Below, piece after piece: positions 1 through 57,943 of a DNA stretch of 64,000 bases. The notes beneath the pieces were generated by a model, which had not been told where the DNA came from, made no database searches, and saw only the letters and a program-made list of their open reading frames with translations. The translations under genes were made by a program, and so were the position numbers. The DNA is taken from positions 14,895 to 78,894 of the forward strand of contig JAUYKA010000008.1 in assembly GCA_030698495.1 (NCBI GenBank), given 5' to 3'. Each line of letters opens with the position of its first letter. Positions within the stretch are counted from its first letter, which is position 1. The stretch is from a bacterium. GTDB lineage: Bacteria; Patescibacteriota; Andersenbacteria; UBA10190.

Positions 1-225
1 TTTAATGCCAGTCCACATGATTACGTCGTGGTAATGAAGGACGAGGTAGGCGCGACAGGATGGTTTGTGCGGGCGCGATTGGAGAACCACCATGATGATA
101 AGGCGGGATTTGATGAAGAGCAGGGGCGAAATTATTATTATCGCTATGTTAATCCGACTAATTCAACTTTCTACGAAGTATGCGGCGGGGAGTTGCGCTG
201 TGATTTTAGCGGAGTTAGGGAATGA
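1..225 (+). CDS. C-terminal fragment of a hypothetical protein. The ORF is open to the window edge.
   Basis: The frame of ORF 28..225 has no stop codon back to position 1. I recognise no motif. Confidence 0.3.
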   Translation, partial: FNASPHDYVVVMKDEVGATGWFVRARLENHHDDKAGFDEEQGRNYYYRYVNPTNSTFYEVCGGELRCDFSGVRE

Positions 226-310
226 TGAATCGGTTGATTAAAAAAAGCGGCGTGGTGTTGGTGGTTAAGGTGTTGTTGTTTGTTTTTGTAGCGGTGTTAT
301 TTGTCGGTTA

Positions 311-2273
311 TTGTCTGGTCAACTGGAAAAATTATATGATGGAAAATCATTAAATTATAACCTTGCTTTTTCTTTGCGTCATACTGCTTTTGTAGATGAA
401 GGTGTGCGCCAAGGATTGCTGGCGGGGATAGCAGTTTTACTAGCAATGTTTCTGGTATCGCGAATTCAGTCTGGACGTTGGCGTTGGATAGCAGTGTTAG
501 TGGCGGCGGCGGTTCTGTTTCCGTTAGGAGTGCTGGGGTTTTGGTACTCGACTGGTAAGTTGGGAATAGCGGATTGGGATTTGAATAAAGCGGTACAGGA
601 CTCTTATCGTATTGCTATCTTAAATTATCGTCAGCTGCCGTTGTGGAATCCTCTTGCTTGCGGCGGCGGCGCGGGATTGGCGAATCCGGAAAATTCCATT
701 TTTTCTCTGCCTTTTTTATTTGTGCTGTTAGCAGGAACACTGACGGGTTTTAAAATGGGGATTTTGTTTTCAATAATAGTTCTGGCAATGGGAATGATAA
801 TCCTGGGAAAGGCGGCGCGCTTGACGCCCCTCGGTGCTTTTTTAGCGTCTTTAACGGTGGTAGCGGGTAGCGCTTTTGTTTTGCGTTTGGTGGAGGGGCA
901 TGTTTATATCGCTTTTGCTTATGCTTGGATTCCCTGGGTGTTGTGGGGCTGGTATAAGGCCTACGCCAATTTTCAATTTTCATAGAAATACCAAGGCACA
1001 AAAAATAGACAGGGGCGGCGTTGGTTTGAAAATTGGTCATTGGAAATTCAATGAAAATTGGTCATTGAAAATTGGAAATTTTAACTATTATTCTCTTCTC
1101 ACCGGTATCTTTCTGGCTCTGATGTTTTACTAGGGGGGTATTTATCCTCTAATGTACACGGGTTTTATTTTGCTCTTTTTGGTATTGGTGGCAAGACGAA
1201 AGGTAAGAGCATTATTAGTAACAGTGGTAAGCAGTGTTTGGGCGTTGGGCCTGTCGGCGTTCAAATTGGTGCCGGCTTTGTTTTGGATGAGCGGAGTTCA
1301 TCAAGGGGCCTACACGCAGTCCAGTTATACTTGGCGTTATTTAGGAAAAATATTTTTAGGACGCAACTGGCATGGTGCCAATGTTTTTTATAACCAGGGT
1401 ATAGGCTGGCATGAGTATGGGGCTTATGTTGGTCCGGTGATAGTTGTATTGGCGATAGTGGCGCTATTGGGTTGGCGGCGGGATCGGATAACGCGGCTGC
1501 TGGTGATTGGTGTGGTAATTACAATTACAGTGTCCACGCTTGGTCCGTTGGCGGGAGCGGCGCTGGCAAAGTTAGAGTTTTTACCCCGTTCGAATGTTTC
1601 CCGGTTGGTTCTTGTGGGTGTAATACCGCTGGCGTTATTGGCGGGCAAAGGGCTGGATGTGTTGGGTAGTCGCCGGTGGTTGTGGTGGATACCGGCAGCG
1701 ATGATCGGGTTGGCGGCGATAGATTTATTTACTTTGTCTTACCCTGTGTCTACGCAGGCGTTTACTATGGATGCCGTGCGAGAGAAGATGCCGGTACTTG
1801 TTAACCCGATTGCGTATAGCCGAGCGAGATATCCCGAAGGTCGGGGCGGTAGGGAATACACGCGTTTTTCCGCGTTAGTGGAGCAGGGTTACGGCTGGCT
1901 TGATTATTGCCCCCCGCTGAACCCTTCTCCGGCGGTAGTGAGCGCGGAAGCTAACGCTAAGGCACAATTCGCGGAAATAAAAGGAGGTGGGGAAGCCAGG
2001 GTTAGCGGTTGGTCGCCAAATGGTTTTGATGTTGATTACCGGGCGGAGGAGGAATCGATAGTTGTTTTTAACGAGAACTTTGGGTTTGGTTGGACGGTTA
2101 ATGGCGCGCCCGCGTTGAACGACAAGGGGCGGCTGGCAGCGAAGGTGCCGGCGGGAGAGGGACAAATAAAGATGAGATATAGAGCGCGGGGAATAGGGGT
2201 CGGCATAGCTATAGTCATCGCAACGGTTGGACTGGTTATAGGGTTAATGACAAGCAAACGTAGGTTTAGGTAA
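311..2273 (+). pseudogene. YfhO-family (GT-C-like) membrane glycosyltransferase, apparently disrupted. The N-terminal TM part is in frame +2 (311..985) and the C-terminal part in frame +3 (876..1133 and 1152..2273).
   Basis: The N-terminal piece has multi-TM helices and the motif LPLWNPLACGGG, shared with the two downstream paralogs (FPLWNPYFCGGSP and LPVWSNLFGFGQP). The C-terminal piece has TMs, a beta-rich domain and a terminal TM like the paralogs. Pieces are separated by an AT-rich repeat tract and TAG stops at 983..985 and 1131..1133. Confidence 0.5.
966..1090. repeat. AT-rich short direct and inverted repeats that interrupt the YfhO-like gene. The recurring unit is gaaaattggtcattg(g)aaatt.
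   Basis: gaaaattggtcattggaaatt lies at about 1027..1047 and gaaaattggtcattgaaaattggaaatt at about 1059..1086. The inverted partner ccaattttcaattttc lies at 966..981. Confidence 0.5.
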
Positions 2274-4712
2274 CTATTCAACTTTTGAAAGTACGATCAG
2301 GATTGTGATGGCAGATACTAAACTGATGAGACTGCCCCAAATAAAAGAGTTTGGCAGAAACTTTATAGTGATTGTTTGTCCGATATCCGCGGCGGATATA
2401 TAAAATGCGGGGCGGAAGTTTTGGGCGAAAACTGAACGATTCGACGCGCGCCAACCGGCGGCGTATTTTTGGTTGACAATGATCGTATCTTGGCCGTTGT
2501 CCGGTGTAATTGAGTTTACTTTGAAGGTAATTTTGTTGGGGGTGTATTGTATTAATGTAATACCGCTGCCGTTTTGCGCGAATAATTCGCCGCGGTATCG
2601 CTCGTTTTGGTGTCCGGTTATGGAGGCGTTAGATTGCCAGAGTTGAAGATGCGCCGGGCACTGATTGGCGGCACCGTCGCCTGCGTTGACGGTATGATAG
2701 CTGATGTCATTTCTGTTTTCTTCTTGGGTGAAGGTATTGCCATAGGGGCTGGCGGTTATAGGGGGCAGACTAAATATCTGCTGCCATGGATATGCCGCTG
2801 TCAGACTAAGATCTATGAATATTATACCTGCAACAATTGTAGTAACGGCGGGTCTAAAAGCAATTGGTAAGAAACGATTGATAATGGTTTGGGTGCCCAT
2901 GGCCGCCAGAAGAGAAAGGGCGAGGACAACCATAATCATTGCTCTGCCGGAGTTGCGGAGTTGGTTGAGTACGGGGAAAAAATCAATAAAGCTATGACTG
3001 GCAGGGGCGGTTACAATAAGCAAAAAGGAGAGACCGGATATGATAAAAAGGAAAAAGAGAAGACGGCGGCGTACTTGAAGGATGGCGGTTAAACCGGCAA
3101 GCGCTAATATTAGCGGAAACCAACCGATATAGGAGGAGTATTCGTGCCAAGGTTGTTCCAGCCAAGGCAGGAAATAATATAAATCAATATGTCGGTCGAG
3201 GAGGACGGTGGGTACATGAAGCCAGGGAGTGCCGTTGTTTTTTGCGAGTGCTCCGCTGACATAGCGGAGAAAATCCAGGATAGGCAAAATTTTTATAGCA
3301 CCCAGGGAGAGGGTTAGAATAAAAAATATACAAGTGTTGCGAATGATGGTTGATCTTAGGGGTGAGAGAAAGATAGCAACAAGAGCAGAAAATAAGATTA
3401 TAAAAAGAGATATATAGGTTACTAGATGCACGCGGCCTTCCAGTAAAATAAGAAGTAAAAATATTACCGACATAATAATATATCGGCGTTTCCTGAAAGA
3501 GCGGAGAAAGTAATAAAAAACCCAGGGGACCCAGGCCACTGATAGCCAGAGGAGTTGTCCGGCGGCAAGATGACTAGAGACGAAGCCATTGCCCATAAAT
3601 ATAATTGCTGGAATCAGGGCGGATGCTTTACTTAGCTTTAATTGGAGAGAGAGTAAATATGATCCTATAAGCCCAAGTGCTAGGTATGTGGTAATGGCTA
3701 TTTTAGAACCGATTATATCTCCGAAAACAATAGTGAGAAGGAAGGTTAGGGATGGCCAATAAGTTTGTGGATTGCCCCAACTGGGCGAGCCGCCGCAAAA
3801 GTAGGGATTCCAGAGGGGGAATTGTCCGGCCGCTAAGCTGTGCCGGGCGGCGCTGTAATGACTGGCCGCTTCGGTCCAGTCCCATGTCCCCCAATTGGTT
3901 GCGTTTTGATATACCGGTAAGGAGAAAAACAAAGCCAGGATAATAAATAATAAAATAGGCGGAGATGACAGGAGGCGGTGACTTTTAATTTGTCTGGCTA
4001 TTAAAAGTGATTCGATAGCAACCAGAGCTAGAAAAACAATGAGTACGATGTCGTATAGGCGTGATTGTTCGAATATCAAAGATTGAAGCCGTTGCAGAAA
4101 AGAGGCGCGGTAATAAGTGCGGAAGCTTAAGCTATTGGGTTTTACGCGGCCATTAACGGATATACTGCCGTCGGTGTATTTTGTGGCATCAATTTCCGAT
4201 GGAAGTAGTAATCCTTCGGCATCCGTTCGTAAGGAAAATTGGGAGGTAGTACCGGTTTTTAGAGAAACCGGTTCAAATCGGAATAACAACCAGCGGCCGG
4301 GTGTCAACGACTGTTCATTAAGAGCCGGTTGATTCGATTGCGAAGTAATAAGAAAATTTTGTATGTTATCGGTGCGGCTGACGACTATGGTTCCTGACGA
4401 AGACTTGACGGTAAAAGTTCCGTTAATATTTTTATCACCGGCAGTGTCCGGCTTGATTTGGACGGCGATGCCCGAGATAGGCTGACGTGTGACCAGGAAA
4501 CTTTGTGTGATTGTGTCGTGGGCGTCGAAGGTATGTTCGGAGCCAGGGAGAACGGCGAGTGATTGATCGGTAAGATTGGACGGCGCTGCAAGGAAAGCCA
4601 AAACAAAGCGCGCGGAGATAAAGACGATAACCAGGCAAATAATAACAGCAAATGACGCGGTTATTATCGATGTGGGTTTTAGCGCGGAACTATGAAAGAC
4701 TGGATCGCGCAT
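2274..4712 (-). CDS. YfhO-family polytopic membrane protein, a putative GT-C glycosyltransferase for extracytoplasmic glycosylation.
   Basis: 812 aa with more than 10 TM helices and the motif AAGQFPLWNPYFCGGSPSWGNP. It has a large C-terminal extracytoplasmic domain with AAGWRASN and a final TM anchor. Confidence 0.7.
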   Translation of the reverse strand: MRDPVFHSSALKPTSIITASFAVIICLVIVFISARFVLAFLAAPSNLTDQSLAVLPGSEHTFDAHDTITQSFLVTRQPISGIAVQIKPDTAGDKNINGTFTVKSSSGTIVVSRTDNIQNFLITSQSNQPALNEQSLTPGRWLLFRFEPVSLKTGTTSQFSLRTDAEGLLLPSEIDATKYTDGSISVNGRVKPNSLSFRTYYRASFLQRLQSLIFEQSRLYDIVLIVFLALVAIESLLIARQIKSHRLLSSPPILLFIILALFFSLPVYQNATNWGTWDWTEAASHYSAARHSLAAGQFPLWNPYFCGGSPSWGNPQTYWPSLTFLLTIVFGDIIGSKIAITTYLALGLIGSYLLSLQLKLSKASALIPAIIFMGNGFVSSHLAAGQLLWLSVAWVPWVFYYFLRSFRKRRYIIMSVIFLLLILLEGRVHLVTYISLFIILFSALVAIFLSPLRSTIIRNTCIFFILTLSLGAIKILPILDFLRYVSGALAKNNGTPWLHVPTVLLDRHIDLYYFLPWLEQPWHEYSSYIGWFPLILALAGLTAILQVRRRLLFFLFIISGLSFLLIVTAPASHSFIDFFPVLNQLRNSGRAMIMVVLALSLLAAMGTQTIINRFLPIAFRPAVTTIVAGIIFIDLSLTAAYPWQQIFSLPPITASPYGNTFTQEENRNDISYHTVNAGDGAANQCPAHLQLWQSNASITGHQNERYRGELFAQNGSGITLIQYTPNKITFKVNSITPDNGQDTIIVNQKYAAGWRASNRSVFAQNFRPAFYISAADIGQTITIKFLPNSFIWGSLISLVSAITILIVLSKVE

Positions 4713-7539
4713 GGGCTGATACGGGGTAGATTATAAGGCAAAAAACCAATATTAAAGCAACGAGTGTGATAATTTTGGCTTGGGCGATTGCGGGCGAGTG
4801 GTAGCGGAAAGTTACCGTGTGGTTGCCGGCGGGAACGTAGGCGGTTTTAAACACGGTATCGGCGACGTAGTACGGCGCCGGTTGGCCGTCTATGGTAGTT
4901 TGCCACATAGGCAGGGTGCTGTCGGTGACCACCAGCCAGGCGGCATTTTGCGTATCCACGTTAACGGTAGCTTCGCCGTCGCCGTAATCAGTAATAGTAG
5001 CAGTGCCGATAACGGGCGGATTATTGAGCGTGTCGTCGGCGGGAGGCTTCGGGCCGGAGACATATATCAATTCCGCGGGATTGAAATTGTTTTGCGTCAT
5101 GGCGGCGCGCGCTTCGTCATCGGCCGGCTGAAAAATCGCGTTTGGTACCAGAAAGGCTTTGGGAAAGGCTTGGGGGTTGATGTAGAGATTGGCGGAACCG
5201 ATGTTAGTGTCGACACTGTCTGTTAACTGAAAGTTATTGGCCGGCATATTGTCTTGGCCCTGCGGCGGAACTATTTGGGCCAAATGAGTGACGCCGGCCA
5301 GGTCTAGGGTTTTGCGATGGCGCTGGATGGCGTGTAAGCCCTCGCCATCGAAGGGTTGATCGTTGTCGTTGGCAAAGAATGTTTCGATGAATTCCCGATA
5401 AGGCCGGATGGATAGAGCGCCAATCCAGCGGGCGCTGCTGGTATTGGCAGTGGCTTGTAAGTGTCGGGCAAAGATAAGATTTTCGGGGTCGGTTTGCGCG
5501 GAAGAAGTTTCGGCGACTTCCAGACGGTTATACTTCTGCGACTGTTCGATTTGTTCGGTGGTGGGGTTGGCGACGCGGACAAAATAGGCTGATTTGGCGG
5601 TGGAAGTGGAATAAGTGTAAAGGCTGATGCCGTTATCTGTTTGGGATTTAAAGGAAAGATAATAAGTGGCATCGGGAGAGGGGAGGCTTACGTTAAAACA
5701 AAATGTTTGATCGTGAACTTGTGAGATATTGTAGGCGGTAATTGTTTGCGTGGCTACAGGTGGTCCGGTAACTGTTTGGCTTAACGCAATTTCTATGTTG
5801 CCGTCAGCGTTAGGCGGTGCGTACATGGGGGCTGAAAAACAAGGATTATTTGTATTATGGACAATAATAGGCTGGTAAGCGGAAAAATCCGGAGATAAAA
5901 GCGAAGTTGGTTTGATAGTGTACTTGTTGGCGTCTGTTAAGATGGTGTCGCGACTGTAAAGGCGTGGCGGGACGGCGTTATCCAGAGTGTATTGTTCAAG
6001 AGGTGAGGCCAGCGGCGACCGGACGGCTAAAGAAGGCAGCGTCGTTGGATTATAGGCGAAGCCATAAGCGACTAGAGAAAAAGACGCCGTTATAACCAGG
6101 GCCGGCGGCCAGAGGTTAGCGGCGCGGGGGAAACGATGGATAAAAATTCCAAGCAAGAAAACGATCAGGCCGATCAGGGCAATTACGAGCTGCCAGTTGT
6201 AGGTTTTAAGAAGACTGATAAGGCGTGCGGTGATAGTTGGGTCGTGCAGGGATAACAGAAAAGGCAGGAAAATTAAAAGGACTATGAAGGCAGAGAGCAA
6301 AACAGCAAGAGGAGTACGTTTGGGTTTTTTTGTCAGTGATTCAAATCCCAGGGCAGCTAAAATGGCGACGGCAAAATCAACGAAGTAGACGAAGCGGCCA
6401 GCGACGCTAAGGGTGGTTAGGTAACGGTGTTCGACAAGATATCGATAAACGGGCGAATATTGACCCAGGGCAAGTGCGATACCCGATAAAAACAGGATAA
6501 GGGCGGCAATACGCAGCTGTTTATGGTCGCGCCAGTAGAATAAGGAAACGGCTGTCAGCAGTAACGGGATAATACCGGTGAACGCGGCCAGTTCCTGAAA
6601 GCCTTTGGCGCCCCAGTAACGGGCGTGGTCGCCGAAGAAGTAAGGCGCGACTAATGTGATGGCGTGAGCCGGAGGATAACTAAAATCAAAGAGTTCTGTT
6701 TCAGGCAGGTCGGCGTTGCGTTCGGTGAAGGGGATAAATTCTTTTAAAGGGAGGATGGAGAAGGAAGAGAGAGATAAGGCGAGAAGGGCGGAGATAAGAG
6801 TATATACTATGACTAGTGATGTGTATTTTATGATTGAATTGTTAAATTGCTGAATTGTTAAATTGCTTTTTAGGTTAGCGAAGAACAAGGCTAGGCCGAC
6901 AGTGGCAGCGATGATGAAGCTATATAAAACTACTTGTGGTTGGGCGGACATCGTCATGGCAGTGGCGATCAGAGCCATGGCGGCGGCGGCGCGGCGGCGG
7001 GGGCGGTCAAGAAAAGATTTGATGGCGACCAGTAGCCAAGGCAGTAGCATGACGCCGGTATAGAAGTTAACGTGGTTGAGATGGCCGATATTAAAACCGG
7101 AAAAGGTGAAGACAATAGCGCCGAGGGCGGATGAAAGTTGGGATAGGTTAAACTTTCTCAAGAAAACATAAAAACCGGTAAGGCCAATGAGAAAATATGT
7201 TACGACTGATATTTGCAGCAAGATGAGCGGTGGGATATAAAGGGCGCGCATGAACAAATGGAGGGGCGTGAAGAAGCCGAGTTGCCCCCAGGCCATTAGC
7301 GGCTGACCGAAGCCGAACAGGTTGCTCCAGACCGGTAGCTGCCAAGAATGCTGAAACCGCGCGTAAACGGTTTCCAGGGGGTAGTAAATTATTTTTAGAT
7401 CGTCGAGGAAGTAGAACCTTTGTCCGGAGATTATTGGAAAGAAAAAAAACAGCCAGGCTCCGGTAATAATTAACAACCCGGTTCTGTTTTTTGAGACTAA
7501 CGAGAGCAGTTTTTGAAATAAAATAGCGGGGCTTGCCAT
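4690..7539 (-). CDS. YfhO-family polytopic membrane protein, a paralog of the 2274..4712 gene.
   Basis: 949 aa with a multi-TM N-terminus and the motif SWQLPVWSNLFGFGQP. It has a long soluble domain and a C-terminal TM. Its stop overlaps the start of the downstream paralog by 23 nt. Confidence 0.7.
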   Translation of the reverse strand: MASPAILFQKLLSLVSKNRTGLLIITGAWLFFFFPIISGQRFYFLDDLKIIYYPLETVYARFQHSWQLPVWSNLFGFGQPLMAWGQLGFFTPLHLFMRALYIPPLILLQISVVTYFLIGLTGFYVFLRKFNLSQLSSALGAIVFTFSGFNIGHLNHVNFYTGVMLLPWLLVAIKSFLDRPRRRAAAAMALIATAMTMSAQPQVVLYSFIIAATVGLALFFANLKSNLTIQQFNNSIIKYTSLVIVYTLISALLALSLSSFSILPLKEFIPFTERNADLPETELFDFSYPPAHAITLVAPYFFGDHARYWGAKGFQELAAFTGIIPLLLTAVSLFYWRDHKQLRIAALILFLSGIALALGQYSPVYRYLVEHRYLTTLSVAGRFVYFVDFAVAILAALGFESLTKKPKRTPLAVLLSAFIVLLIFLPFLLSLHDPTITARLISLLKTYNWQLVIALIGLIVFLLGIFIHRFPRAANLWPPALVITASFSLVAYGFAYNPTTLPSLAVRSPLASPLEQYTLDNAVPPRLYSRDTILTDANKYTIKPTSLLSPDFSAYQPIIVHNTNNPCFSAPMYAPPNADGNIEIALSQTVTGPPVATQTITAYNISQVHDQTFCFNVSLPSPDATYYLSFKSQTDNGISLYTYSTSTAKSAYFVRVANPTTEQIEQSQKYNRLEVAETSSAQTDPENLIFARHLQATANTSSARWIGALSIRPYREFIETFFANDNDQPFDGEGLHAIQRHRKTLDLAGVTHLAQIVPPQGQDNMPANNFQLTDSVDTNIGSANLYINPQAFPKAFLVPNAIFQPADDEARAAMTQNNFNPAELIYVSGPKPPADDTLNNPPVIGTATITDYGDGEATVNVDTQNAAWLVVTDSTLPMWQTTIDGQPAPYYVADTVFKTAYVPAGNHTVTFRYHSPAIAQAKIITLVALILVFCLIIYPVSAHARSSLS

Positions 7540-8632
<1,093 letters not shown>

Positions 8633-8653: not shown

Positions 8654-9475
8654 ATGCCGATTATAAAAGACTACATAATTAAAACTACTCTAAAAGGGAT
8701 AGAAAACACGGTCGGGTTGTTTGGTAAAGAGTTGTCAATCGGCGGTGAAAGGGGAGAGGTAACTTTATTTATGGGATTGCCAAAAGACATGGATCCTGCT
8801 TTTCAGCGCATATATAAAGAATGCCGTCCTTACACAATGACTTCTGTAGAGCGAATGTATGCCCTATACCAGGCCACAAAATATATTATTGTTCAGCATC
8901 TTCCTGGTGATTTTGTCGAGTGCGGGGTGTGGAGGGGAGGAAGTGTGATGCTGGTGGCTAAAACTCTTAAAGAACTTGGCGTAACTGATAGGCGTATACA
9001 CCTATTTGACACATTTAAGGGGATGACTACTCCAACTGACCGTGATGCAAGGATATCTGACAATCTGCCGGCAACTTCCCTATGGAAGACGCAAGCTCGC
9101 GGTGACTATAACGAATATGCTTATGCTCCCCTTGAAGATGTGCAGCGAAACTTGTCGACTACGGGATATCCCGAGGAAAATTTTGTTATTGTTGCCGGTC
9201 CAGTGGAAGAGACTTTACCACGATTAGCCCCACCAAAAATTGCTCTTTTGCGTTTAGATACGGACTGGTATGAGTCTACTAAACATGAATTGGAACATCT
9301 TTTCCCGCTGCTTGTACAAAATGGCATTCTAATCATTGATGATTACGGGCATTTCACCGGTGCACGGGATGCAGTTGACGAATATTTTAAGGAGAAAGGC
9401 ATTAATCTTCTATTAAACAGAGTGGACTACACTGGGCGATTGGCTATTAATACCGCGCCGCAAAATAACGGCTAA
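8654..9475 (+). CDS. TylF/MycF-family SAM-dependent sugar O-methyltransferase.
   Basis: The motifs FVECGVWRGGSVM and LRLDTDWYESTK are typical of macrocin O-methyltransferase-like class I methyltransferases. Confidence 0.8.
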   Translation: MPIIKDYIIKTTLKGIENTVGLFGKELSIGGERGEVTLFMGLPKDMDPAFQRIYKECRPYTMTSVERMYALYQATKYIIVQHLPGDFVECGVWRGGSVMLVAKTLKELGVTDRRIHLFDTFKGMTTPTDRDARISDNLPATSLWKTQARGDYNEYAYAPLEDVQRNLSTTGYPEENFVIVAGPVEETLPRLAPPKIALLRLDTDWYESTKHELEHLFPLLVQNGILIIDDYGHFTGARDAVDEYFKEKGINLLLNRVDYTGRLAINTAPQNNG

Positions 9476-11151
9476 TTTGCTCTGTTTTTCGCCGCGTAAA
9501 TTTCTTGCTCGTCGAGCAAGTTGATTGGAATAACAAATTTTCCTTTAAGCAGGTTGTTTGGTGTGGAAGGTTTAGCGTTTAGATGCTTGCTCGCGCGGTA
9601 GAGAAGGTAACTTAGGCTAAAATAGCGGGTGTGCGAGGTGGCTTTAATGATGGAGAGATTGTGTTTTTTCAAGAGGACAGCCAGGGACTTTCGGGAAAAA
9701 TAGTGAAGATGAGAAGGAAAAATGCAGTACCATGAACGTCCCATCATTTTAGCCAACAAACTATCAAAGCGAGGAGTAGTTAGCACAAATAAGCCATCAG
9801 GTTTTAGTAAGCGCGCTGCTTGAGAAATTAATTTTTGGGGTTCGGGATGGTGTTCAATAACGTCTAGCATAGCTATAACATCAAAACTGGCGCTATCTAA
9901 TTTAGCGAGAGCGTTGTTATCAGTTTGAATATTTGTTAAGCCAAATTCAGCTTCGGCATAAGAGGCTGAGGCAATTGAAGGCTCGATACCGGTAACCCGC
10001 CATCCCTGCTTTTTTGCTTCATTTAAGAAGAAGCCTGGCCCAGCCCCTATATCAAGAAGGTGCCCCGGTTTTTTATTGGCTGAAATCCTGCTTAGGATTT
10101 TACGCGCTGTTTTTTGTCTGGTAACTTTTTCTGATAGATAGACTGTGTCTAAGGGTGCGTATTTATAGAGATGAGAGAGCTGTTCAAAGCTGTTGTTGAG
10201 GGGCGTGAATCCATGAGAGCATGAGGGGCAGCGGTAAATTGGCAATTGCTTATTTGTGTCTTCAATAGAGATGCGGTATTGGTGCTGTTTGAAGAAAACG
10301 CTTGGTTTAATATTTCCTTTTTGAAACAGTTTTGTTTTGTGGCTGCAAATGGGACATTTTTGAGGCGACAGGCTGCCGCTGGGCTTAAGGGTTTTAAGAG
10401 TTGACAGGCCATATTTAACTGATGATGCAAAAGGGATAGACGACGATTCGTTTGTATAGCGGCAGGGGATGGCCGCTTCGGCAAAACGGAATTTTTGGCG
10501 GGCGGCGGAGGCAATCATTTCCGAGTCAAAGACGAAGCTGTCAGAGAACTCTTCGAAAGGCAGCGACTCTAAGAGTTGTTTTGAGTAGGCCCGGTAACCG
10601 GAGTGACATTCTGACAGCGATATTCCCAAAATTTTATTTTGTAGAAAGGTGAGCAGCCTGTTGCCCCAATATCGCCACCAAACCATGCCGAATTCTCGCG
10701 GGTCTTGTTTTAAAAATCTTGAACCAATAACAAAATCGGCTTCCTGATGTAAAATTGGCTTGATCATTTGCGGCACATAGCGCGGATCATACTGAAAATC
10801 AGGGTGTATCATTACCACAATATCCGCTCCATGCTGCAAGGCTTCCTTGTAACAGGTTTTCTGGTTTCCGCCATAGCCCTTGTTCTGCCGATGTTTCACG
10901 ACCTTTAACCCGTCTATTGTTTCAGCAACCTTGACCGTATTATCACTACTGGCATCGTCTACCAAAATCACTTCATGAACATGGGTTTTTGGTATGGCTT
11001 TGTATGTTTTGGCCAGTGTTTGCTCGGCGTTGAAGGCCGGTAATACTGCGATGATGTATGGCTTTGGTTGTGCAGGCTGATCGTTGTCGAAACTCCTGAT
11101 AGCAGTTGACTGTTTCTCTGTTTTGGTTGGCTGTCTTGTTAATACGTCCAT
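9472..11151 (-). CDS. Fusion protein: an N-terminal GT2 (GT-A) glycosyltransferase, a CxxC...CxxC zinc ribbon, and a C-terminal class I SAM methyltransferase.
   Basis: The N-terminus has AVLPAFNAEQTL...VILVDDASSDNT...VIGSRF, which is DPM/GtrB-like. The middle has CPICSH...CPSCSH. The C-terminus has LLDIGAGPGFF...FDVIAMLDVIEHHPEP...LKPDGLFVLTTP. Confidence 0.75.
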   Translation of the reverse strand: MDVLTRQPTKTEKQSTAIRSFDNDQPAQPKPYIIAVLPAFNAEQTLAKTYKAIPKTHVHEVILVDDASSDNTVKVAETIDGLKVVKHRQNKGYGGNQKTCYKEALQHGADIVVMIHPDFQYDPRYVPQMIKPILHQEADFVIGSRFLKQDPREFGMVWWRYWGNRLLTFLQNKILGISLSECHSGYRAYSKQLLESLPFEEFSDSFVFDSEMIASAARQKFRFAEAAIPCRYTNESSSIPFASSVKYGLSTLKTLKPSGSLSPQKCPICSHKTKLFQKGNIKPSVFFKQHQYRISIEDTNKQLPIYRCPSCSHGFTPLNNSFEQLSHLYKYAPLDTVYLSEKVTRQKTARKILSRISANKKPGHLLDIGAGPGFFLNEAKKQGWRVTGIEPSIASASYAEAEFGLTNIQTDNNALAKLDSASFDVIAMLDVIEHHPEPQKLISQAARLLKPDGLFVLTTPRFDSLLAKMMGRSWYCIFPSHLHYFSRKSLAVLLKKHNLSIIKATSHTRYFSLSYLLYRASKHLNAKPSTPNNLLKGKFVIPINLLDEQEIYAAKNRAN

Positions 11152-11209: not shown

Positions 11210-13066
11210 ATGTCTAATCTTGGGCAACAAAAAAATAATATACGTATAGTGAGTATTGGTTTGCTAATAATAGGTGTGCTTGCTAGTGTTTTCCAGCTGT
11301 TATATGGCGTGGTTAGTGCTTCTATAGACCGCGATACCTATTTTTTGCTGGCGGCGGGCAGGGAAGTGGCATTAAGTGGAATTCCGCGCCTTCCTTTTTT
11401 TGTGAATAGTACGCCCGGAATCGATATTCTCTTTTGGACACACCAAGTGCCCGCCTTCTTATATGGGGCAATAGTGAAATTTTTGGATGTAAATATTTTT
11501 AGTTTTACCTGGGTTGTCATTGCCCAATTGATACTGACTATGGTTATTAGCTTCTTGTTTTTACGGGAGTTGTTGAAATGGTGTGAGCCGGGACTGGTGC
11601 GCTATGCACCGGTGTTCCTGTTGTTCCTGCTATATGATCCGATATTTAACATTCTTTTCCTGAATATAAAAATGTTTTTGCAATGGGCATATATTTGGTC
11701 TGTCTTAGCCATAATATTTTTAATATGGTTTTGGCATAACCCCCGCGGATGGCGTGGTTTAGTTTGGCTGTTTTTAAGCAGTTGTTCAGTGGCATTAGCT
11801 CCATTATCTTTTATAAGCTTGGGCATTCCGGCGGCACTTGGCATTGCCATCACAGAACTCTTGTTTGTGAGGTGGAGAACAAAAGGAATTTCACGAGAAT
11901 ATGCCATAAAAGCCTTTCTGGCCTGTATTTTAGGCTGGTTTATACCAGTGCTTTTTTTGTTAGTGTATTTGGGTGGTAAGCTGGATCCTGGCCAATGGAA
12001 AACTTTATGGGTTCTGGTTGGCTCTTATGGAGAAAACGCTTCCGTTCTAAGCATAAAACAATATATTCTCCAGCTTGGTTTTTTTGGGAGCACCATGTTT
12101 ATACCGCTACAGGGGTTCAGCTTGCTGCCAATCGGATTAATCTCAATATTTTCTAATTTTGTGCGGCGGCACAGTCTGGCTATCCAGCAGCAGTATTTGG
12201 TGTGGATGTCTTTTGTGTTGGTTGCAGCTTGGTTATTAGCGGCTTCTGTGGGGAGCACGCATTTTGCCAGCCACTTAATGATATGGATTTTGCCCATAAT
12301 GTTAGTGAATATTGCTATTATTTTAGGTTCAAAGAAGAACAGCGACACAAGAGCGATATTTTTGACGGCAGCATCGATTATTATTCTGGGGCAGGCTAGT
12401 TATCACTTAGTGCTTAATTCCTTAAACTATCTGGCAATTGCCGCGGCAGCAGGTGTGACATCGGGGATGATAATAGTTTTGTATTATCAAAAATGGAAAT
12501 TGCCGGTCTTTATAAGTTTGTTTATTTCTTTGTTGTTTTTTGTGCCGGTTGTACAAACAAGGTTAGTTTCCCTACATTCTTTTGCCCCAACGGTTTTACG
12601 GGAGGTCGGACGTGATAAATTATGGTCGTACGATAATTTTTTATTGGCTACTCGTGAAGTAACTAGCCGTTATGTTCAACCAAATGATTGGGTGTTAACT
12701 AATTTACCAGTGACTGAGCTTTTTCCCGAGGGCGTGAAGTTACAAATTCTTTATAACTATCGTGGTTTATTTAGCGGTGCTCGCCTTGAGCCGGGTGATG
12801 TGGCTATTCTTTTTGGTTCTACTGAAGCGAAGAGCATTGCTAATTATCAAAATATGAGTGTAGGTGAAGTATTTTCTTACCGTTTGTTTGAATATGAAAT
12901 ATTGAAGCGAGAAGAACTTTCTGCTGGGCATTATTTGTTAGTTGCTAAGCCAGCGGCCAGTTTAGATGCTAATAAGCAAGTTATTGAAGATGATCGAGCT
13001 GCTTCCAAAAGTGAGGTACGAAATTATTTGCAATGGCGGTTGGAGAACAATTTGCCAATTAAATAG
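11210..13066 (+). CDS. Large polytopic membrane protein of unknown function, a GT-C-like candidate with a C-terminal soluble domain.
   Basis: 618 aa with about 12 predicted TM helices, then a roughly 180-aa hydrophilic C-terminus. The first extracytoplasmic loop contains DRD. I recognise no family motif. Confidence 0.5.
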   Translation: MSNLGQQKNNIRIVSIGLLIIGVLASVFQLLYGVVSASIDRDTYFLLAAGREVALSGIPRLPFFVNSTPGIDILFWTHQVPAFLYGAIVKFLDVNIFSFTWVVIAQLILTMVISFLFLRELLKWCEPGLVRYAPVFLLFLLYDPIFNILFLNIKMFLQWAYIWSVLAIIFLIWFWHNPRGWRGLVWLFLSSCSVALAPLSFISLGIPAALGIAITELLFVRWRTKGISREYAIKAFLACILGWFIPVLFLLVYLGGKLDPGQWKTLWVLVGSYGENASVLSIKQYILQLGFFGSTMFIPLQGFSLLPIGLISIFSNFVRRHSLAIQQQYLVWMSFVLVAAWLLAASVGSTHFASHLMIWILPIMLVNIAIILGSKKNSDTRAIFLTAASIIILGQASYHLVLNSLNYLAIAAAAGVTSGMIIVLYYQKWKLPVFISLFISLLFFVPVVQTRLVSLHSFAPTVLREVGRDKLWSYDNFLLATREVTSRYVQPNDWVLTNLPVTELFPEGVKLQILYNYRGLFSGARLEPGDVAILFGSTEAKSIANYQNMSVGEVFSYRLFEYEILKREELSAGHYLLVAKPAASLDANKQVIEDDRAASKSEVRNYLQWRLENNLPIK

Positions 13067-21097: not shown

Positions 21098-21098
21098 A

Positions 21099-22904: not shown

Positions 22905-23562
22905 AATTGCTATGCAGCACATGAATAATAGAAACAATACTTATCTAACCAAAAGCGAAGAAAGTCGTTTACGGTTATTGGAGAAAAATTCTCATGAATA
23001 TCTAGAACAACTGCAGGACAGTGCTCTTAAGTGGTCGTGGAGAGGGTGGATACCGCGGGCGCTGGGGAGATCTAAGTATTCCTTGTGGGCATGGCAAACA
23101 CGAGTTCCTCTGGCGCATCGTTGGTCCTTAATTCTTCAGCAATGTGAAGAATTAAGGACTTTTTTGATCCAGTCGGATTCATGGGAAAAAGCGCGATGTA
23201 TGAATGTGCTTGATTTGGGATGTGGTTTTGGCATGTATTGGCCAATATTGAGGGAATATGGATTCCGTAAGTTTGTGGGAATAGATTTATTCGATATGAG
23301 GGGGAGGCAGCAATATTTTAAAGCGGCGAGAAAATATATTGGAAAATTTTGTTCGGACTGTGAAACTCAATTAATTATGGACGATGTTCGAAATCTAGAT
23401 AAACATAAACTGCTGGCTGATAAGTTTGATATAATTTTAAATATAGCAACTACCTCCACAAAACTTAGATCCACCGGTATTCCCCACGATATTCTAGAGA
23501 GTGTCGGGAAAAAACATGGGGCAGAAAATTGCCTTATAGTCGACGTTGCCAAGGCCCATTAA
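22897..23562 (+). CDS. Class I SAM-dependent methyltransferase.
   Basis: It has VLDLGCGFGMYW (motif I), FDIILNI and a post-I acidic residue. Confidence 0.6.
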   Translation: MFEIAMQHMNNRNNTYLTKSEESRLRLLEKNSHEYLEQLQDSALKWSWRGWIPRALGRSKYSLWAWQTRVPLAHRWSLILQQCEELRTFLIQSDSWEKARCMNVLDLGCGFGMYWPILREYGFRKFVGIDLFDMRGRQQYFKAARKYIGKFCSDCETQLIMDDVRNLDKHKLLADKFDIILNIATTSTKLRSTGIPHDILESVGKKHGAENCLIVDVAKAH

Positions 23563-33305: not shown

Positions 33306-34532
33306 TTAAACAGTAAGGCTATTAAGTATTTCTTGGTATTTTTGTATTGATTTATCCCAATTGAATTTTTCTATATTTTCTTGATAGGCCTTGATTCCCA
33401 TTTGTTTACGAAGTTCCGGGTGAGTTACTAAAAAGTTTATTTTTTCAGACATAATTTGAGGGCTGTGGGTTGGAATGAGGATGCCGGATTCACTGGAGGT
33501 AATAATTTCTTTTGTTCCGCCGACATCAGTTGCTATGATTGCTTTTTGGCAGAGCGCAGCTTCGATAACGGAAGTAGGCAGACCTTCCGTGTAGCTGGGA
33601 TTAATGAAAATATCAGAAGCTTTGATTATGGAGATTGTTTGTTCCCACGGCTGCGAGTCCAGAAAAGTAATCCTATCGGCCAGATCAAGGTTGGCAGCTT
33701 GCCGGCGCAGAGCGGATAGTTGGCTGCCTTGGCCTATTATAAAACAGTGGAAGTTTATTAACTGAAGATGATCGAGAGCGTTGAGGAGATCGGTTACTCC
33801 TTTGCCATCGATGAGGCGGCCGGCGTAGGTGATTATAGGGGTAGCAGGCAGCAGGTAGTAGGTAGTATGCAGGTTGACTGGTTGTATCTTCTGTATTTGC
33901 TGAATATCAACGCCGCGATAGATGACTGTGACCGGTTTTTGGAGCACGAATTTTTTGACAAAAGCGGCGGAGGCGTGGGAATTGGCAACGACGGCGTCGG
34001 CGGAACGCAATATGAGCCGGCCAAGCGTGAGATCGTAAAATTTGGCGATGAAGCTAAGTAGGGGGTTATGTAGGTGCACGTAATCGGAGCCGTGCTCGAT
34101 ATGTAGCCAAGGCATGCGGTGTGTTTTAGCATAAAACCCGGCCATTATAGAAGCGAAGAAGAAACGGGTTCTTGAAAGTACTATAGTTTGTAGTGAGTAG
34201 TTTGTGGTGAGTAGGGACTTTTTAACTAAGTGCCATTGTTCCCAAAAAAGAGGCTGCCAGAATTTTGGAACTGGATAATTAGGTATTATTTCCCAGGCGG
34301 GGAACCGAAAGATGTGTACTCCTTCTGATTTTTCCGTGAGTTTTGCATTTGGTGTGATGAGTGGAGTGAAAACAGTGATTTTATAGCCGCGCCTAGTCAT
34401 TTCCTGATCAAATTGCTGGGCATGGGTTTCAAGCCCCCCCACGTGGGGCGGATAAAGGGGGGAAAAGACAAGTATATGCCGCTGAATTTGGTTTTCAGGG
34501 GGAGTATGTGTATGATGTATAGTTGGTTTCAT
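33306..34532 (-). CDS. GT4-family glycosyltransferase. I chose an internal ATG start at 34532; the longest ORF extends to 34823.
   Basis: It has RHILVFSPLYPPHVGGLETH and INPSYTEGLPTSVIEAALCQKAIIATDVGGTKEII. The 5-prime extension to 34823 is hydrophilic, non-GT-like and overlaps the divergent gene. Confidence 0.75.
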   Translation of the reverse strand: MKPTIHHTHTPPENQIQRHILVFSPLYPPHVGGLETHAQQFDQEMTRRGYKITVFTPLITPNAKLTEKSEGVHIFRFPAWEIIPNYPVPKFWQPLFWEQWHLVKKSLLTTNYSLQTIVLSRTRFFFASIMAGFYAKTHRMPWLHIEHGSDYVHLHNPLLSFIAKFYDLTLGRLILRSADAVVANSHASAAFVKKFVLQKPVTVIYRGVDIQQIQKIQPVNLHTTYYLLPATPIITYAGRLIDGKGVTDLLNALDHLQLINFHCFIIGQGSQLSALRRQAANLDLADRITFLDSQPWEQTISIIKASDIFINPSYTEGLPTSVIEAALCQKAIIATDVGGTKEIITSSESGILIPTHSPQIMSEKINFLVTHPELRKQMGIKAYQENIEKFNWDKSIQKYQEILNSLTV

Positions 34533-35258
34533 ATGGCTATAAATATTCAGAAAAAGATTTGTATAATAGTACCGGCTTATAACGAGGAGGGGTTTTTGGC
34601 CGAGGTGGTGGGTGATATCAGAAAATATTGCCCAGAGGCCCAAATAGTGGTTGTGAATGATGCCTCTAGTGATAGTACTAAACTGGTTGCGTGGTCGCAA
34701 AGAGTGCCCGTTTTGGACTTGCCTACCAATTTGGGTATTGGCGGGGCTATGCAGACGGGGTTTTTGTATGCGGTGCGTAACGGTTTTGACGTTGCGATGC
34801 AGGTAGACGCCGACGGGCAACATGATCCTCGGTTCATACCTGTTTTATTGGAAGCGCTGGGGGAACGCGGGGCCGACATGGTAATCGGAAGTCGTTTTTT
34901 GGAGCGAGTCGGCTACCGGGCCTCGTTTATGAGGTTGTTTGGGATCAGATTTTTTGCCTGGTTGATTGGTATGATGACCAATAGGCGTGTTTATGACGCT
35001 ACCTCCGGATACCGTGCCTATAATAAAGAAGCTTTAAATTTCGTGGCAAAATATTATCCGTCTGATTTTCCGGAGCCGGAATCGATTGTCATTATGCTCC
35101 GTAACGGGTTCAAAATTAAAGAAGTGCCGGTCGTGATGAAACATCGCCAAGCAGGAACTTCCTCGGTGCGTCCTTTAAAGGGAACATATTTTGTGGTATC
35201 TAATGCTGTGGCGATTATAATCAGTGCTTTTAAAAGAAGGTTACGTTCAAGTTTATGA
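34533..35258 (+). CDS. GtrB/CsbB-like GT2 polyprenol-phosphate sugar transferase. I chose a start at 34533; the longest ORF starts at 34413.
   Basis: It has ICIIVPAYNEEGFL, VVVNDASSDST, MQVDADGQHDP and MVIGSRF, the classic dolichol/undecaprenol-phosphate glycosyltransferase signature. Confidence 0.85.
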   Translation: MAINIQKKICIIVPAYNEEGFLAEVVGDIRKYCPEAQIVVVNDASSDSTKLVAWSQRVPVLDLPTNLGIGGAMQTGFLYAVRNGFDVAMQVDADGQHDPRFIPVLLEALGERGADMVIGSRFLERVGYRASFMRLFGIRFFAWLIGMMTNRRVYDATSGYRAYNKEALNFVAKYYPSDFPEPESIVIMLRNGFKIKEVPVVMKHRQAGTSSVRPLKGTYFVVSNAVAIIISAFKRRLRSSL

Positions 35259-35641
35259 TTGATTTTTTGGTTTTCAGCGGTTCTATTCCGGCTCGTACAC
35301 AAACGTTTGCTATTGTTGTTAGCGGGGGTTTATTTTTATTGATTGTGTATTTAATACGTAGCGGTCGCCTGAAAGAGGGTTATTCGCTGATATGGTTTTT
35401 TATAGCGTTAGCTACGGTTGCCTTGTCGGTTTTTAGTGGACTGCTTGATGTTTTTGCCAGGTTTATCGGAATTGCTTATGTACCGGCAGCTCTGTTTTTA
35501 GTGTTGTTGGGCGGAGTGTATTTATTGGGTATTCATTTTTCTTTGCTGCTCAACAGGTATGATAAACGCATCCGACAATTGGCCCAAGAGCATGCTATAC
35601 TGAAGGAACAAATCGCTAAACTGCTTGATAAAAAGTTATGA
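35255..35641 (+). CDS. Small 3-4 TM membrane protein with a C-terminal amphipathic tail (GtrA-role or DUF2304-like). It is a likely partner of the GtrB-like enzyme.
   Basis: 128 aa, translationally coupled to the upstream GT2 by an ATGA overlap. It has hydrophobic helices then KRIRQLAQEHAILKEQIAKLL. Confidence 0.5.
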   Translation: MIDFLVFSGSIPARTQTFAIVVSGGLFLLIVYLIRSGRLKEGYSLIWFFIALATVALSVFSGLLDVFARFIGIAYVPAALFLVLLGGVYLLGIHFSLLLNRYDKRIRQLAQEHAILKEQIAKLLDKKL

Positions 35642-56039: not shown

Positions 56040-57215
56040 CTAAGAAGAGACTCTTTTAAGTAGATTGATTAAGCGCTGACTGCTTTGGCCGTCGGTGTAG
56101 GTGATAAGTTTTTTGATAGTGGCGAGACGAGTGTTTTGTTTGAAGGCGGGATCGGTCAGATATTTTTGCATGGCCAAAATAAGTTGTTTTTCATTATTGA
56201 CAACAGTGGTGCCGCCACTTGAAATAATATCACGGTAATGTTGCCGGAAATCACGGTAAACCATTGAGCGGTACCAACGCCACCAATCGAAGCGGCGGCC
56301 GTATTTTACGTTAACGACCGGGACATCGGCTAGCATGGATTCAATAGCCACGGTGGAAGATTGGTTGATGAGTATGGCAGAGTGTTTAAATAGGGCTACG
56401 TGCCGATAAATTTCTTCGTATGTCGGCAAGTAGTGAAAATGCGGTGAGGGCGAGTCTGACCTTCGGCCGAAGGAATATTCAACCTTGGCGCCGTATTGGC
56501 GATAGAACAAATGGCGGGAGATATCACCGCCGGGATGAACCGAAGCGTAAATTGAGGTGTTGCCAGGCAATTGGCGGCGGCTGACAGCTTGCTTAATGGA
56601 TTGAATAATGTAACCGAAGGGGTACAGCTCGGTGGTGGCGCAGTGAATAAGCTTTTGATCAGGCTTTAGCGATAGAGAGGTCAAGAACTGTTGGCGATCG
56701 GGAATTAGATGGTTATGATAGAAAAAATCAAAACGGGGAACGCCGATAATGTCTATTTTTTCTCTGTATTGAGAAAAGAGACGTAATGCGTGGTCACGCA
56801 TCATACTATTCCAAACAGCCAGATGGTCGGGCAGAGCGTATTCCCGACCGTATTTTATCAGACGCTCAATTTTATAAACATTGTCCCAACTGGCAATAAA
56901 CGCGCAGGAGGGGATATTGTGGCGGTGCGCGGCGCGAATTATGGGCAGGTCAGAACTATCAAGGCCGATAGTGGGGGTGACTACAATGTCCGGTTGCAGT
57001 TGGTTTAGCAGTTTGTCGTGCCCTGTTTGGTCGGAAGGGGTTTGGTGATAGCTGAATTTATCACCCAAGCTATTGAGGCGAGAGCGTAAATAATCGGCCG
57101 CGGGGGTTAAGACTTGAACGTGTGATATGACGGGGTCATTTTTCAATAAAGGAGCGAGAGGCAATAAGAGCTCGCGTGTGTTGAAGCCGGTGGGAGCAGA
57201 AACGGCTATTTTCAT
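56040..57215 (-). CDS. GT-B-fold-like transferase of unknown family. I chose a start at MKIAVSAPTGF (57215); the alternative is 57263.
   Basis: About 391 aa. It has a Rossmann-like N-domain and a C-terminal SSTVAIESMLADVPVVNV segment consistent with GT-B. I could assign no family. Confidence 0.4.
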   Translation of the reverse strand: MKIAVSAPTGFNTRELLLPLAPLLKNDPVISHVQVLTPAADYLRSRLNSLGDKFSYHQTPSDQTGHDKLLNQLQPDIVVTPTIGLDSSDLPIIRAAHRHNIPSCAFIASWDNVYKIERLIKYGREYALPDHLAVWNSMMRDHALRLFSQYREKIDIIGVPRFDFFYHNHLIPDRQQFLTSLSLKPDQKLIHCATTELYPFGYIIQSIKQAVSRRQLPGNTSIYASVHPGGDISRHLFYRQYGAKVEYSFGRRSDSPSPHFHYLPTYEEIYRHVALFKHSAILINQSSTVAIESMLADVPVVNVKYGRRFDWWRWYRSMVYRDFRQHYRDIISSGGTTVVNNEKQLILAMQKYLTDPAFKQNTRLATIKKLITYTDGQSSQRLINLLKRVSS

Positions 57216-57235
57216 GAGATAGGCTTTATGCGGGA

Positions 57236-57943
57236 TTATTTCCCCGTCAGCCGCAGTTTCCAAACTATAGCCATGGCTTCACGGACTATTTTGCCACTCA
57301 TTTTAGATTTCCCGGCCCGGCGTTCAGTAAAGACAATGGGTATTTCTTTAATGCGCAGATGTCGGCGCCATGACCGGAAGATGGTTATTACTTGAAAACC
57401 ATAGCCATCGGCACGGATTGTTGGTAAGTCAATAGTTTGAAGAGCGCTTGATCGCCAAGCGCGAAAGCCGCCGGTTGAATCTTTAAAAGGAAGGCCGGTA
57501 ATAAAACCGGCGTAAGCGTTGCCGCCGATGCTTAAAAGTAAGCGGCGCAGGGGCCAATTGACGATACTGATGCCGTTAACGTAGCGCGAGCCAATAACAA
57601 CATCGCTGCTTTCCAGGTGTTGGAGTAGTCGGGGGACATCATGGGGGTTATGAGAAAAGTCCGCATCCATCTGCACGACACTATCCGCCCCTTTTGCGAC
57701 GGCGTATTGAAAACCATGAATGTAGGCGCGGCCGAGGCCGGATTTTTTGGGGCGGACGACGAGTTGCAGTTTTGGAAAGTTGGTTTGCAGACGGCGCACT
57801 ATATCGGCCGTGCGGTCGGGAGAGTTATCGTCAATAATAAGAACGGAAATATTGGGTACGTTAAGAGCGAACAAAGATTTGATCATTTGTTCGATATTCA
57901 TTTTTTCGTTGTAGGTAGGTATGACTACCCAAGGATTGTTCAT
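57236..57943 (-). CDS. Dpm1/Ppm1-like GT2 polyprenol-monophosphate sugar synthase (dolichol-phosphate mannosyltransferase family).
   Basis: It has VVIPTYNEKMNI, VLIIDDNSPDRT, GLGRAYIHGF, VQMDADFSHNP and VVIGSRY. Confidence 0.9.
   Translation of the reverse strand: MNNPWVVIPTYNEKMNIEQMIKSLFALNVPNISVLIIDDNSPDRTADIVRRLQTNFPKLQLVVRPKKSGLGRAYIHGFQYAVAKGADSVVQMDADFSHNPHDVPRLLQHLESSDVVIGSRYVNGISIVNWPLRRLLLSIGGNAYAGFITGLPFKDSTGGFRAWRSSALQTIDLPTIRADGYGFQVITIFRSWRRHLRIKEIPIVFTERRAGKSKMSGKIVREAMAIVWKLRLTGK

Follow-up and report, generated by a model that had tools for sequence, protein, structure and literature searches.

The 64,000-nucleotide (nt) stretch of DNA analysed here, called the window, belongs to a metagenome-assembled genome (MAG) of Candidatus Andersenbacteria, a tiny-genome groundwater bacterium of the Candidate Phyla Radiation (CPR, or Patescibacteria). 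Near its start, positions 222-7539 hold three adjacent genes for YfhO-like glycosyltransferases of the GT-C fold, designated A, B and C. The explanation that fits them best, and in which we place good confidence, is that they are anciently diverged paralogues, of which A is dead and B and C would be transferases of sugars to the cell surface. Very probably the trio lies at one edge of a large surface-glycan biosynthesis island. The listing of open reading frames (ORFs) and a three-frame translation of positions 1-7700 gave the arrangement in Table 1, and three NCBI proteins from a Candidatus Andersenbacteria MAG (U1C49_02445, U1C49_02450 and U1C49_02455) match the trio at 100%. An earlier note on this DNA had proposed three tandem YfhO-family genes linked by three peptide motifs, all of which are present letter for letter: QLPLWNPLACGGGAG in the plus-strand ORF 311-985, QFPLWNPYFCGGSPS in the minus-strand ORF 2274-4712 and QLPVWSNLFGFGQPL in the minus-strand ORF 4690-7539. 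The word tandem proved right for adjacency and wrong for head-to-tail order, as gene A lies on the strand opposite to B and converges on it, their stop codons abutting at 2273/2274; the locus also begins further upstream than the position 311 given in that note, the remnant of gene A starting at about 222. Genes C and B are co-directional, and the overlap of the B start with the C end by 23 nt makes them look like one transcription unit, so that C and then B are probably co-transcribed.

Homology within the trio was detected by BLASTP between A and B (26% identity over 504 aa, E 1e-26) and between B and C (22.5% over 413 aa, E 5e-10), while A and C gave a weak match of their C-terminal regions only. 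Comparison of family profiles joined all three: the A/B family aligned with the C family at 99.95% probability (E 1.5e-38, 350 columns) and the C family with a wider B family at 99.8% (E 3.6e-30), and in both alignments the quoted motifs fall upon one another. The Pfam family YfhO (PF09586) is matched by 42 of the 43 aligned C-family sequences, that is C and 42 homologues (E<=1e-3, best E 1.2e-18), and by 16 of 37 sequences of the A/B family (best E 5e-13), in which 6 of 37 match PF10131. For gene B an exhaustive HMMER scan returned 3,885 representative homologues at E<=1e-3 and 316 at E<=1e-30; among 67 homologues scanned against Pfam, 15 match YfhO, eight GT-C_AftD, three PTPS_related and one PMT_2, and most match nothing. 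B orthologues are 34-41% identical over 81-96% of its length, and 270 homologues were collected for gene C. Judged by homologues at the sequence level, C is strongly recognised as YfhO, A moderately and B weakly. Gene C is the lineage-wide core YfhO-family orthologue of Andersenbacteria; gene B is intact and, its fold being placed by profile comparison and a confident AlphaFold model, encodes a divergent GT-C protein resembling YfhO and the N-terminal part of AftD.

The predicted folds agree with this assignment. AlphaFold models built on the family alignments scored a predicted local distance difference test (pLDDT) of 85 and a predicted TM-score (pTM) of 0.83 for B, and 90.6 and 0.89 for C. 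The B protein consists of a signal-anchor helix (residues 13-42), a beta-sandwich ectodomain (44-204), a transmembrane (TM) bundle (219-646) that carries TWDWT and QFPLWNPYFCGGSP, a C-terminal beta domain (about 650-785) and a last helix (788-811). In the C protein a helical bundle (residues 1 to about 500), with LDDLK and QLPVWSNLFGFGQP in its loop, is followed by a very large beta-rich domain (about 500-915) and a last TM helix (916-948). The architecture described in the earlier note, with many TM helices, a large extracytoplasmic domain and a last TM helix, is found in the models of B and C, where the large domain is C-terminal and rich in beta structure, and agrees with hydropathy; it can be traced in A through a collinear alignment with orthologues; inside and outside were assigned by the positive-inside rule only. 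In the YfhO model, the last 78 positions correspond to the C-terminal beta domain together with the terminal helix. Structurally the TM modules resemble solved GT-C enzymes: the top Foldseek matches of B in the PDB are all of this class (STT3, PglB, AftA, AftD, ArnT, EmbB and Pmt4), those of C are AftD (6w98, E 3.5e-8) followed by PglB, STT3, AftA and Pmt4, and the soluble part of C gave matches resembling carbohydrate-binding module (CBM) family 6. In GT-C enzymes the catalytic acidic residue lies in the first extracytoplasmic loop after a TM helix. All families here have a near-invariant Asp just after a TM helix, about 27 residues before a P-x-W-(N/S) motif, in the context ADWD (A), TWDWT (B), LDDLK (C) and GGDPW (a fourth homologue in the window, E), aligned across A, B, C and E. 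In the C family D47 never varies and D46 hardly does, and near-invariance also holds for D278 in the A/B and B families. By this position the conserved Asp would be catalytic.

Within the GT-C class, the proteins might instead be glycan polymerases or ligases, or arabinofuranosyl- or mannosyltransferases building a lipoglycan backbone, as AftD- or PMT-type enzymes do. In structure C does match AftD best, eight homologues of B match the N-terminal GT-C model of AftD and one matches PMT_2, and relatives mix these genes with PMT_2 and DUF2079 genes. We regard this as rather improbable: YfhO is the only Pfam family broadly matched by the orthologues, and it is to the end of the YfhO model that the C-terminal beta domain and terminal helix fit. 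Moreover, such enzymes would still catalyse polyprenyl-phosphate-sugar-dependent GT-C reactions, so the mechanism would differ only in acceptor and product. The likeness of mycobacterial AftD to the window proteins extends to the GT-C module, the large extracytoplasmic carbohydrate-binding-type beta domains and the C-terminal TM helix; it differs in sequence (about 10% identity), with TM-scores of 0.29-0.38, is far larger (about 1,300-1,400 aa) and works with an acyl carrier protein partner, and no arabinan pathway is evident in the window.

A YfhO-like family for all three genes, as the earlier note had claimed, is hence borne out by profile comparisons, folds and the Pfam matches of orthologues; its picture of their origin is not. 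That note had read the locus as a local and datable tandem triplication whose copies then diverged in donor or acceptor specificity, a view with which the adjacency of three homologous genes and the co-directional, overlapping order of B and C agree. Yet on shared alignment columns A, B and C are mutually only 16-19% identical, against 47.5%, 44.8% and 55.6%, respectively, to their own orthologues; overall the identity is 16-26% between the copies and 40-56% to orthologues in other Andersenbacteria. In a neighbour-joining tree each copy falls inside its own family, the A and B families being closer to each other than to C, so the three are not closest mutual relatives, nor do they lie head to tail, given the strand of A. 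In one relative (L001) the A and C orthologues are parted by three genes, namely a DUF2079/PMT_2 gene, a PMT_2 gene and one without a Pfam match, and B orthologues in relatives sit in other contexts. A recent triplication therefore appears highly improbable. From the gap between mutual identity and identity to orthologues, we think it likely that the copies are ancient paralogues which were brought or kept together. Turnover of the gene family, also suggested in the earlier note, did find support, as gene content at this type of locus varies between relatives: near the C orthologue they carry variable GT-C arrays, with up to five YfhO-like and four or more PMT/PMT_2-type genes in one 22-kb stretch, and usually an NAD-dependent epimerase (L126, L127 and L128). 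Because of these arrays we consider the arrangement a trait of the lineage and not a local event, and the present locus is an ordinary example of it.

Gene A is the disrupted copy. Its intact homologues are 600-820 aa long and many carry PF09586; the best of them, P0132 (47% identity), aligned by tblastn in two collinear blocks, residues 154-364 with positions 341-976 in frame 2 (50% identity) and residues 368-754 with positions 1098-2261 in frame 0 (45%), as expected from the split across frames noticed earlier. The upstream fragment holds the first extracytoplasmic loop with ADWD and QLPLWNPLACGGG, its homologous part ending at about 964-976, and the downstream part, which NCBI annotates as the separate hypothetical protein U1C49_02455, contains what is left of the TM bundle together with the C-terminal beta domain and last TM helix. 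Between the two, three residues of the orthologue are spanned by 121 nt, and the extra 112-118 nt of an inserted palindrome shift the frame by +1 (2 to 0) and add stops. Further downstream a TAG stands at the position of a conserved Gln (FYQGG or FQGG in orthologues). As TAG is an ordinary stop in the window, where it ends 16 of 54 ORFs, B and C among them, recoding was rejected as the cause of this in-frame stop and the codon is a nonsense mutation; the step from CAG to TAG exchanges C for T on the plus strand, where C is strongly depleted. At its N-terminus P0132 has a TM helix and then a beta ectodomain of about 110 aa without counterpart in gene A, and for residues 1-153 as a whole the only counterpart is the frame-0 TM-helix ORF at 222-353, called as a separate 43-aa gene in other assemblies.

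These observations, a frame break and a premature stop relative to intact orthologues that recur in other assemblies, mark gene A as a pseudogene, with a cut-off N-terminal helix and absent ectodomain, a palindromic insertion and a nonsense TAG. Since the remaining frames are clean and the catalytic-loop signature is kept, its inactivation was probably recent. Survival of gene A as a functional gene, with its two or three pieces acting as a split enzyme or with recoding at work (a Gln inserted at TAG, or a programmed frameshift across the insert), could account for the exact position of the TAG at a conserved Gln codon, for long fragments that are free of further stops and retain the catalytic-loop motifs, and for weak sigma-70-like matches in the insert that point towards the downstream fragment. 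It is very unlikely all the same: the lesions are three and independent, the ordinary use of TAG as a stop speaks against recoding, the insert places stops in all frames and breaks the TM bundle, and the promoter-like sequences are weak consensus matches, while copies of the same element elsewhere have a downstream gene start in 36% of cases against 32% in controls. An assembly or sequencing artefact might be suspected in a MAG, the more so with a low-complexity, palindromic insert prone to mis-assembly, but this is scarcely credible, as the lesions are of three different kinds and the 7.0-7.7 kb stretch that includes all of them is 100% identical in three other assemblies from different runs (Logan SRR13727534, Logan SRR26726065 and GCA_034372665.1). 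The assemblies differ in other respects. Contig JAXMKP010000056.1 of GCA_034372665.1 and the Logan SRR26726065 contig (L003 and L004), which represent the same strain, both end exactly at position 7065, inside gene C, where the window and SRR13727534 read through; the shared end may reflect strain heterogeneity, a coverage break or the origin of both assemblies in the same reads. Upstream of gene A, outside the window, L003 and L004 have a 500-aa gene on the minus strand and a third locus (L002) has only small ORFs (90, 87, 42, 48 and 127 aa); either a difference between strains or the decay of a further gene may lie behind this.

Gene A is interrupted by an imperfect, AT-rich palindrome of about 110-118 nt with the arms CCAATTTTCAAT... 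and ...ATTGAAAATTGG, built of period-7 units (ATTGAAA / ATTGGTC) and able to form a DNA hairpin of -19.6 kcal/mol (z = -2.8). The 64-kb window has no further copy, its sole one lying within coding sequence. Its 22-mer TGAAAATTGGTCATTGNAAATT, for which we estimate from collection size and pattern length fewer than one match by chance, recurs exactly in at least 119 stretches of other GTDB genomes (L007-L125). Among the matches listed, it occurs mostly in CPR lineages, in several copies per genome, and otherwise in some Bacteroidota, Verrucomicrobiota and Proteobacteria MAGs, in Saprospiraceae, in Algoriphagus and in other groups; there it is part of multi-copy imperfect palindromes of 100-130 nt with period-7 units, is intergenic in 89 of the 102 copies that could be classified, and typically, in one orientation or the other, occupies the 120-135 nt that separate two co-directional genes. 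That occurrence in both orientations and the lack of a clear excess in the downstream gene starts given above lend no support to the idea of a promoter cassette. Neither a transposase nor a target-site duplication nor an empty site was seen with the insert, an Rfam search gave chance-level microRNA matches only, and a literature search found no published name for such an element. As its relatives are dispersed, multi-copy and mostly intergenic palindromes, it fits an insertion of an element like the repetitive extragenic palindromic (REP) sequences or miniature inverted-repeat transposable elements (MITEs), which would make it mobile. In size and palindromy, and in the dispersal of its sequence relatives, it resembles the REP, bacterial interspersed mosaic element (BIME) and MITE repeats; unlike them, it has period-7 units and its exact 22-mers extend across many CPR lineages and some other phyla. 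More speculatively, the interval beside the C orthologue might be a hypervariable GT-C cassette site that varies a surface glycoconjugate, by analogy with serotype-converting Gtr cassettes, and the insert might belong to an undescribed class of still-inserting mobile heptamer palindromes; we rate this as possible but unlikely.

By analogy with known lipid-carrier-dependent systems, enzymes B and C probably attach sugars to the cell surface. First, a cytoplasmic GT2 enzyme related to dolichol-phosphate mannose synthase (DPMS), GtrB and ArnC would load a sugar on polyprenyl phosphate, the candidates being the product of 9472-11151 or that of 34413-35258 with its DUF2304 partner. A flippase would then turn the lipid-linked sugar across the membrane, and B and C would each pass it to an acceptor on the cell surface, by means of the conserved Asp that opens the first extracytoplasmic loop and of the P-x-W-(N/S) loop further along, while their beta-rich, CBM-like ectodomains would bind the acceptor. 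Possible acceptors are a glycopolymer, teichoic-like in line with the earlier note or of another kind, and a surface protein rich in Ser/Thr. The teichoic-like polymer is hinted at by a TagF-like gene and a glycan by the CBM-like ectodomains, but a protein is no less possible. For comparison, CsbB/GtcA/YfhO systems modify lipoteichoic acid (LTA) or wall teichoic acid (WTA) with N-acetylglucosamine (GlcNAc) (PMC5836110, PMC8035078), and the streptococcal GtrB/PgtC2 and Pgf systems perform protein O-glycosylation by YfhO-family enzymes (bioRxiv 10.1101/2024.05.05.592596). The members of this family, such as YfhO of B. subtilis and S. aureus (LTA GlcNAc), Lmo1079 of L. monocytogenes (WTA GlcNAc) and the streptococcal PgtC2 and PgfM1/M2, share with the window genes a GT-C membrane module whose first outer loop opens with an acidic residue, a last TM helix behind a large C-terminal beta domain outside the membrane, the PF09586 matches of C orthologues and many A/B relatives, and a DPMS/GtrB-like GT2 nearby. 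In contrast to these, B and the long forms of the A family have an extra N-terminal signal-anchor and beta ectodomain, and the window genes stand in arrays of many GT-C paralogues instead of one GT-A/GT-C pair, and in a CPR host. The order of GT2 loading, flipping and GT-C transfer is also that of the Gtr O-antigen glucosylation cassettes, of ArnC/ArnT and of mycobacterial Rv3631/Rv3632 with a GT-C partner, and the GT2 at 34413-35258 is paired with a small DUF2304 membrane protein, which we take Rv3632 to be as well; the candidate GT2 genes of the window differ in lying 2 kb and 27 kb from the trio, and the pairing of GT2 and GT-C here is putative. Rv3631 and Rv3632 have a reported part in the galactosamine substituent of arabinogalactan (PMC5389812).

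Several results weigh against the reading of A, B and C as YfhO-like surface transferases with A dead. None of the window proteins reaches the PF09586 gathering threshold of 28.5 bits: C alone scores 27.9 bits (E 1e-6), the C-terminal fragment of A 20.9 and rejoined A 9.1, and B has neither a Pfam nor an NCBIfam match of its own. Membership in PF09586 in the strict sense, as claimed in the earlier note, thus applies to the family of C orthologues and fails for C, A and B taken individually. An NCBIfam scan of A, B, C and the nearby membrane protein D gave nothing useful, TM-scores of the models against solved GT-C enzymes are only 0.3-0.5, and a PDB sequence search with the family profiles returned no matches, so there is no solved YfhO-like structure for comparison. 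A GtrA/GtcA-type flippase was not found in the window; the search of its ORFs for the GtrA family, small ORFs included, yielded the DUF2304 protein and an unassigned four-TM ORF at 41077-41463. The GT2 nearest to the trio (9472-11151) lacks TM helices and is fused to a methyltransferase, unlike CsbB and GtrB. Finally, the loss of the ectodomain by gene A is perhaps no lesion on its own and need not have been lethal, since naturally short forms of the A family lack the N-terminal ectodomain; the frame break is real.

CPR bacteria, whose genomes are very small, depend on host-cell contact, and to our knowledge their envelopes are almost uncharacterised; a literature search on glycosylation in Andersenbacteria found nothing relevant. 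The locus is one more example of a known enzyme class and shows no new mechanism. The lineage keeps one conserved YfhO-type enzyme (C) amid a variable GT-C set that includes decaying copies, which suggests that surface glycosylation outside the membrane, dependent on a lipid carrier, is a trait that this lineage maintains and that is evolving. Gene C, gene B and the DPMS-like GT2 with its DUF2304 partner are concrete targets for heterologous tests.

Table 1. Features of the YfhO-like GT-C locus and of the surrounding window, with the evidence for each (positions in the window).
Feature	Position	Strand	Evidence or remark
Gene A remnant, N-terminal TM helix, 43-aa ORF (MMNRLIKKSGVVLVVKVLLFVFVAVLFVGYCLV...)	222..353	+	Frame 0; frame translations
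Gene A N-terminal fragment, 224-aa ORF	311..985	+	Frame 2; tblastn with P0132, motif alignment
Palindromic insertion in gene A	966..1082		Inverted repeats, tblastn gap
Gene A C-terminal part	1098..2273	+	Frame 0; 373-aa ORF from ATG 1152
In-frame TAG in gene A	1131..1133	+	tblastn alignments with P0132 and P0135
Gene B, intact, 812 aa	2274..4712	-	AlphaFold, Foldseek, orthologues
Gene C, intact, 949 aa	4690..7539	-	Homologues, PF09586 in family, AlphaFold, Foldseek
NAD-dependent epimerase/dehydratase (GDP-sugar type), divergent from C	7652..8632	+	Pfam Epimerase E 6e-55, GDP_Man_Dehyd
GT2 fused to S-adenosylmethionine (SAM) methyltransferase	9472..11151	-	Pfam Glycos_transf_2, Methyltransf_23
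Membrane protein D, 618 aa, about 14 TM segments and soluble C-terminal part	11210..13066	+	Adjoins GT2-methyltransferase gene
GT2 (domain from ORF residue 50)	34413..35258	+	PDB sequence matches
DUF2304 small membrane protein after GT2	35255..35641	+	DUF2304 E 2.5e-21
Fourth distant YfhO-like GT-C homologue, 719 aa, GGDPW loop	43090..45249	+	hhalign
TagB/TagF-type glycerophosphotransferase domain protein	56040..57263	-	Pfam Glyphos_transf 40.2 bits, cut-off 22.1

The remainder of the 64-kb window is rich in genes of glycan synthesis: GDP-sugar epimerases and dehydratases, TylF-type and several other methyltransferases, two NeuB homologues, about 12 GT4, several GT2 and two GT9-type glycosyltransferases, an ABC exporter, the TagF-type domain protein and MurJ. 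The fused GT2 at 9472-11151 is the nearest candidate for the cytoplasmic enzyme that loads sugar on polyprenyl phosphate, the best PDB sequence matches of its GT2 part being dolichyl-phosphate-mannose synthase 5mlz (E 8e-8) and ArnC 9hwj (E 1e-5). The fusion is unusual, a DPMS/ArnC-like GT2 being followed by two Cys-x-x-Cys pairs (CPICS and CPSCS) and then by the methyltransferase, whose best PDB matches include sugar C-3-methyltransferases of the TcaB9 type. The GT2 at 34413-35258 is a second and, by its sequence matches, stronger candidate polyprenyl-phosphate sugar synthase: the best 7 of 9 PDB matches are all polyprenyl-phosphate glycosyltransferases (E 2.5e-13 to 1e-7), among them DPMS (E 2.5e-13), GtrB (sll0501, E 8e-9) and ArnC (E 6.5e-8). 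Its ORF overlaps the end of a GT4 gene on the opposite strand (33306-34823), and from this overlap and the late beginning of the domain its true start probably lies later.

The fourth YfhO-like homologue, 36 kb from the trio, has no Pfam match and was seen only by profile comparison, in which it aligned with the A/B family at 97.2% probability (E 4.6e-11, 328 columns) and with the C family at 91.9%. Protein D was considered as a further YfhO-like paralogue and rejected, with a probability of 1.3% against the A/B profile and no Pfam or NCBIfam match; it may be another kind of membrane glycosyltransferase or polymerase. The TagF-like gene hints that the island makes a polyol-phosphate, teichoic-like polymer. 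Genes for nonulosonic acids lie at 19829-24636, where one of the two NeuB homologues is fused to a CMP-sugar cytidylyltransferase domain; together with the TagB/TagF-type protein these suggest sialic-acid-like sugars and a polyol-phosphate polymer on a CPR surface.

The cross-phylum palindromic element and a very strong strand skew are the more unusual side observations at this locus. The plus strand of the window has 17,194 G and 10,849 C, an overall GC skew of +0.23 that stays at 0.15-0.30 in every 4-kb block. It is independent of the strand of the genes, the third-codon-position skew being +0.17 to +0.57 in plus-strand genes and -0.19 to -0.52 in minus-strand genes. For comparison, the skew is 0.04-0.14 at related Andersenbacteria loci, and its 95th percentile is 0.22 among 103 mostly-CPR pieces of 8 kb.

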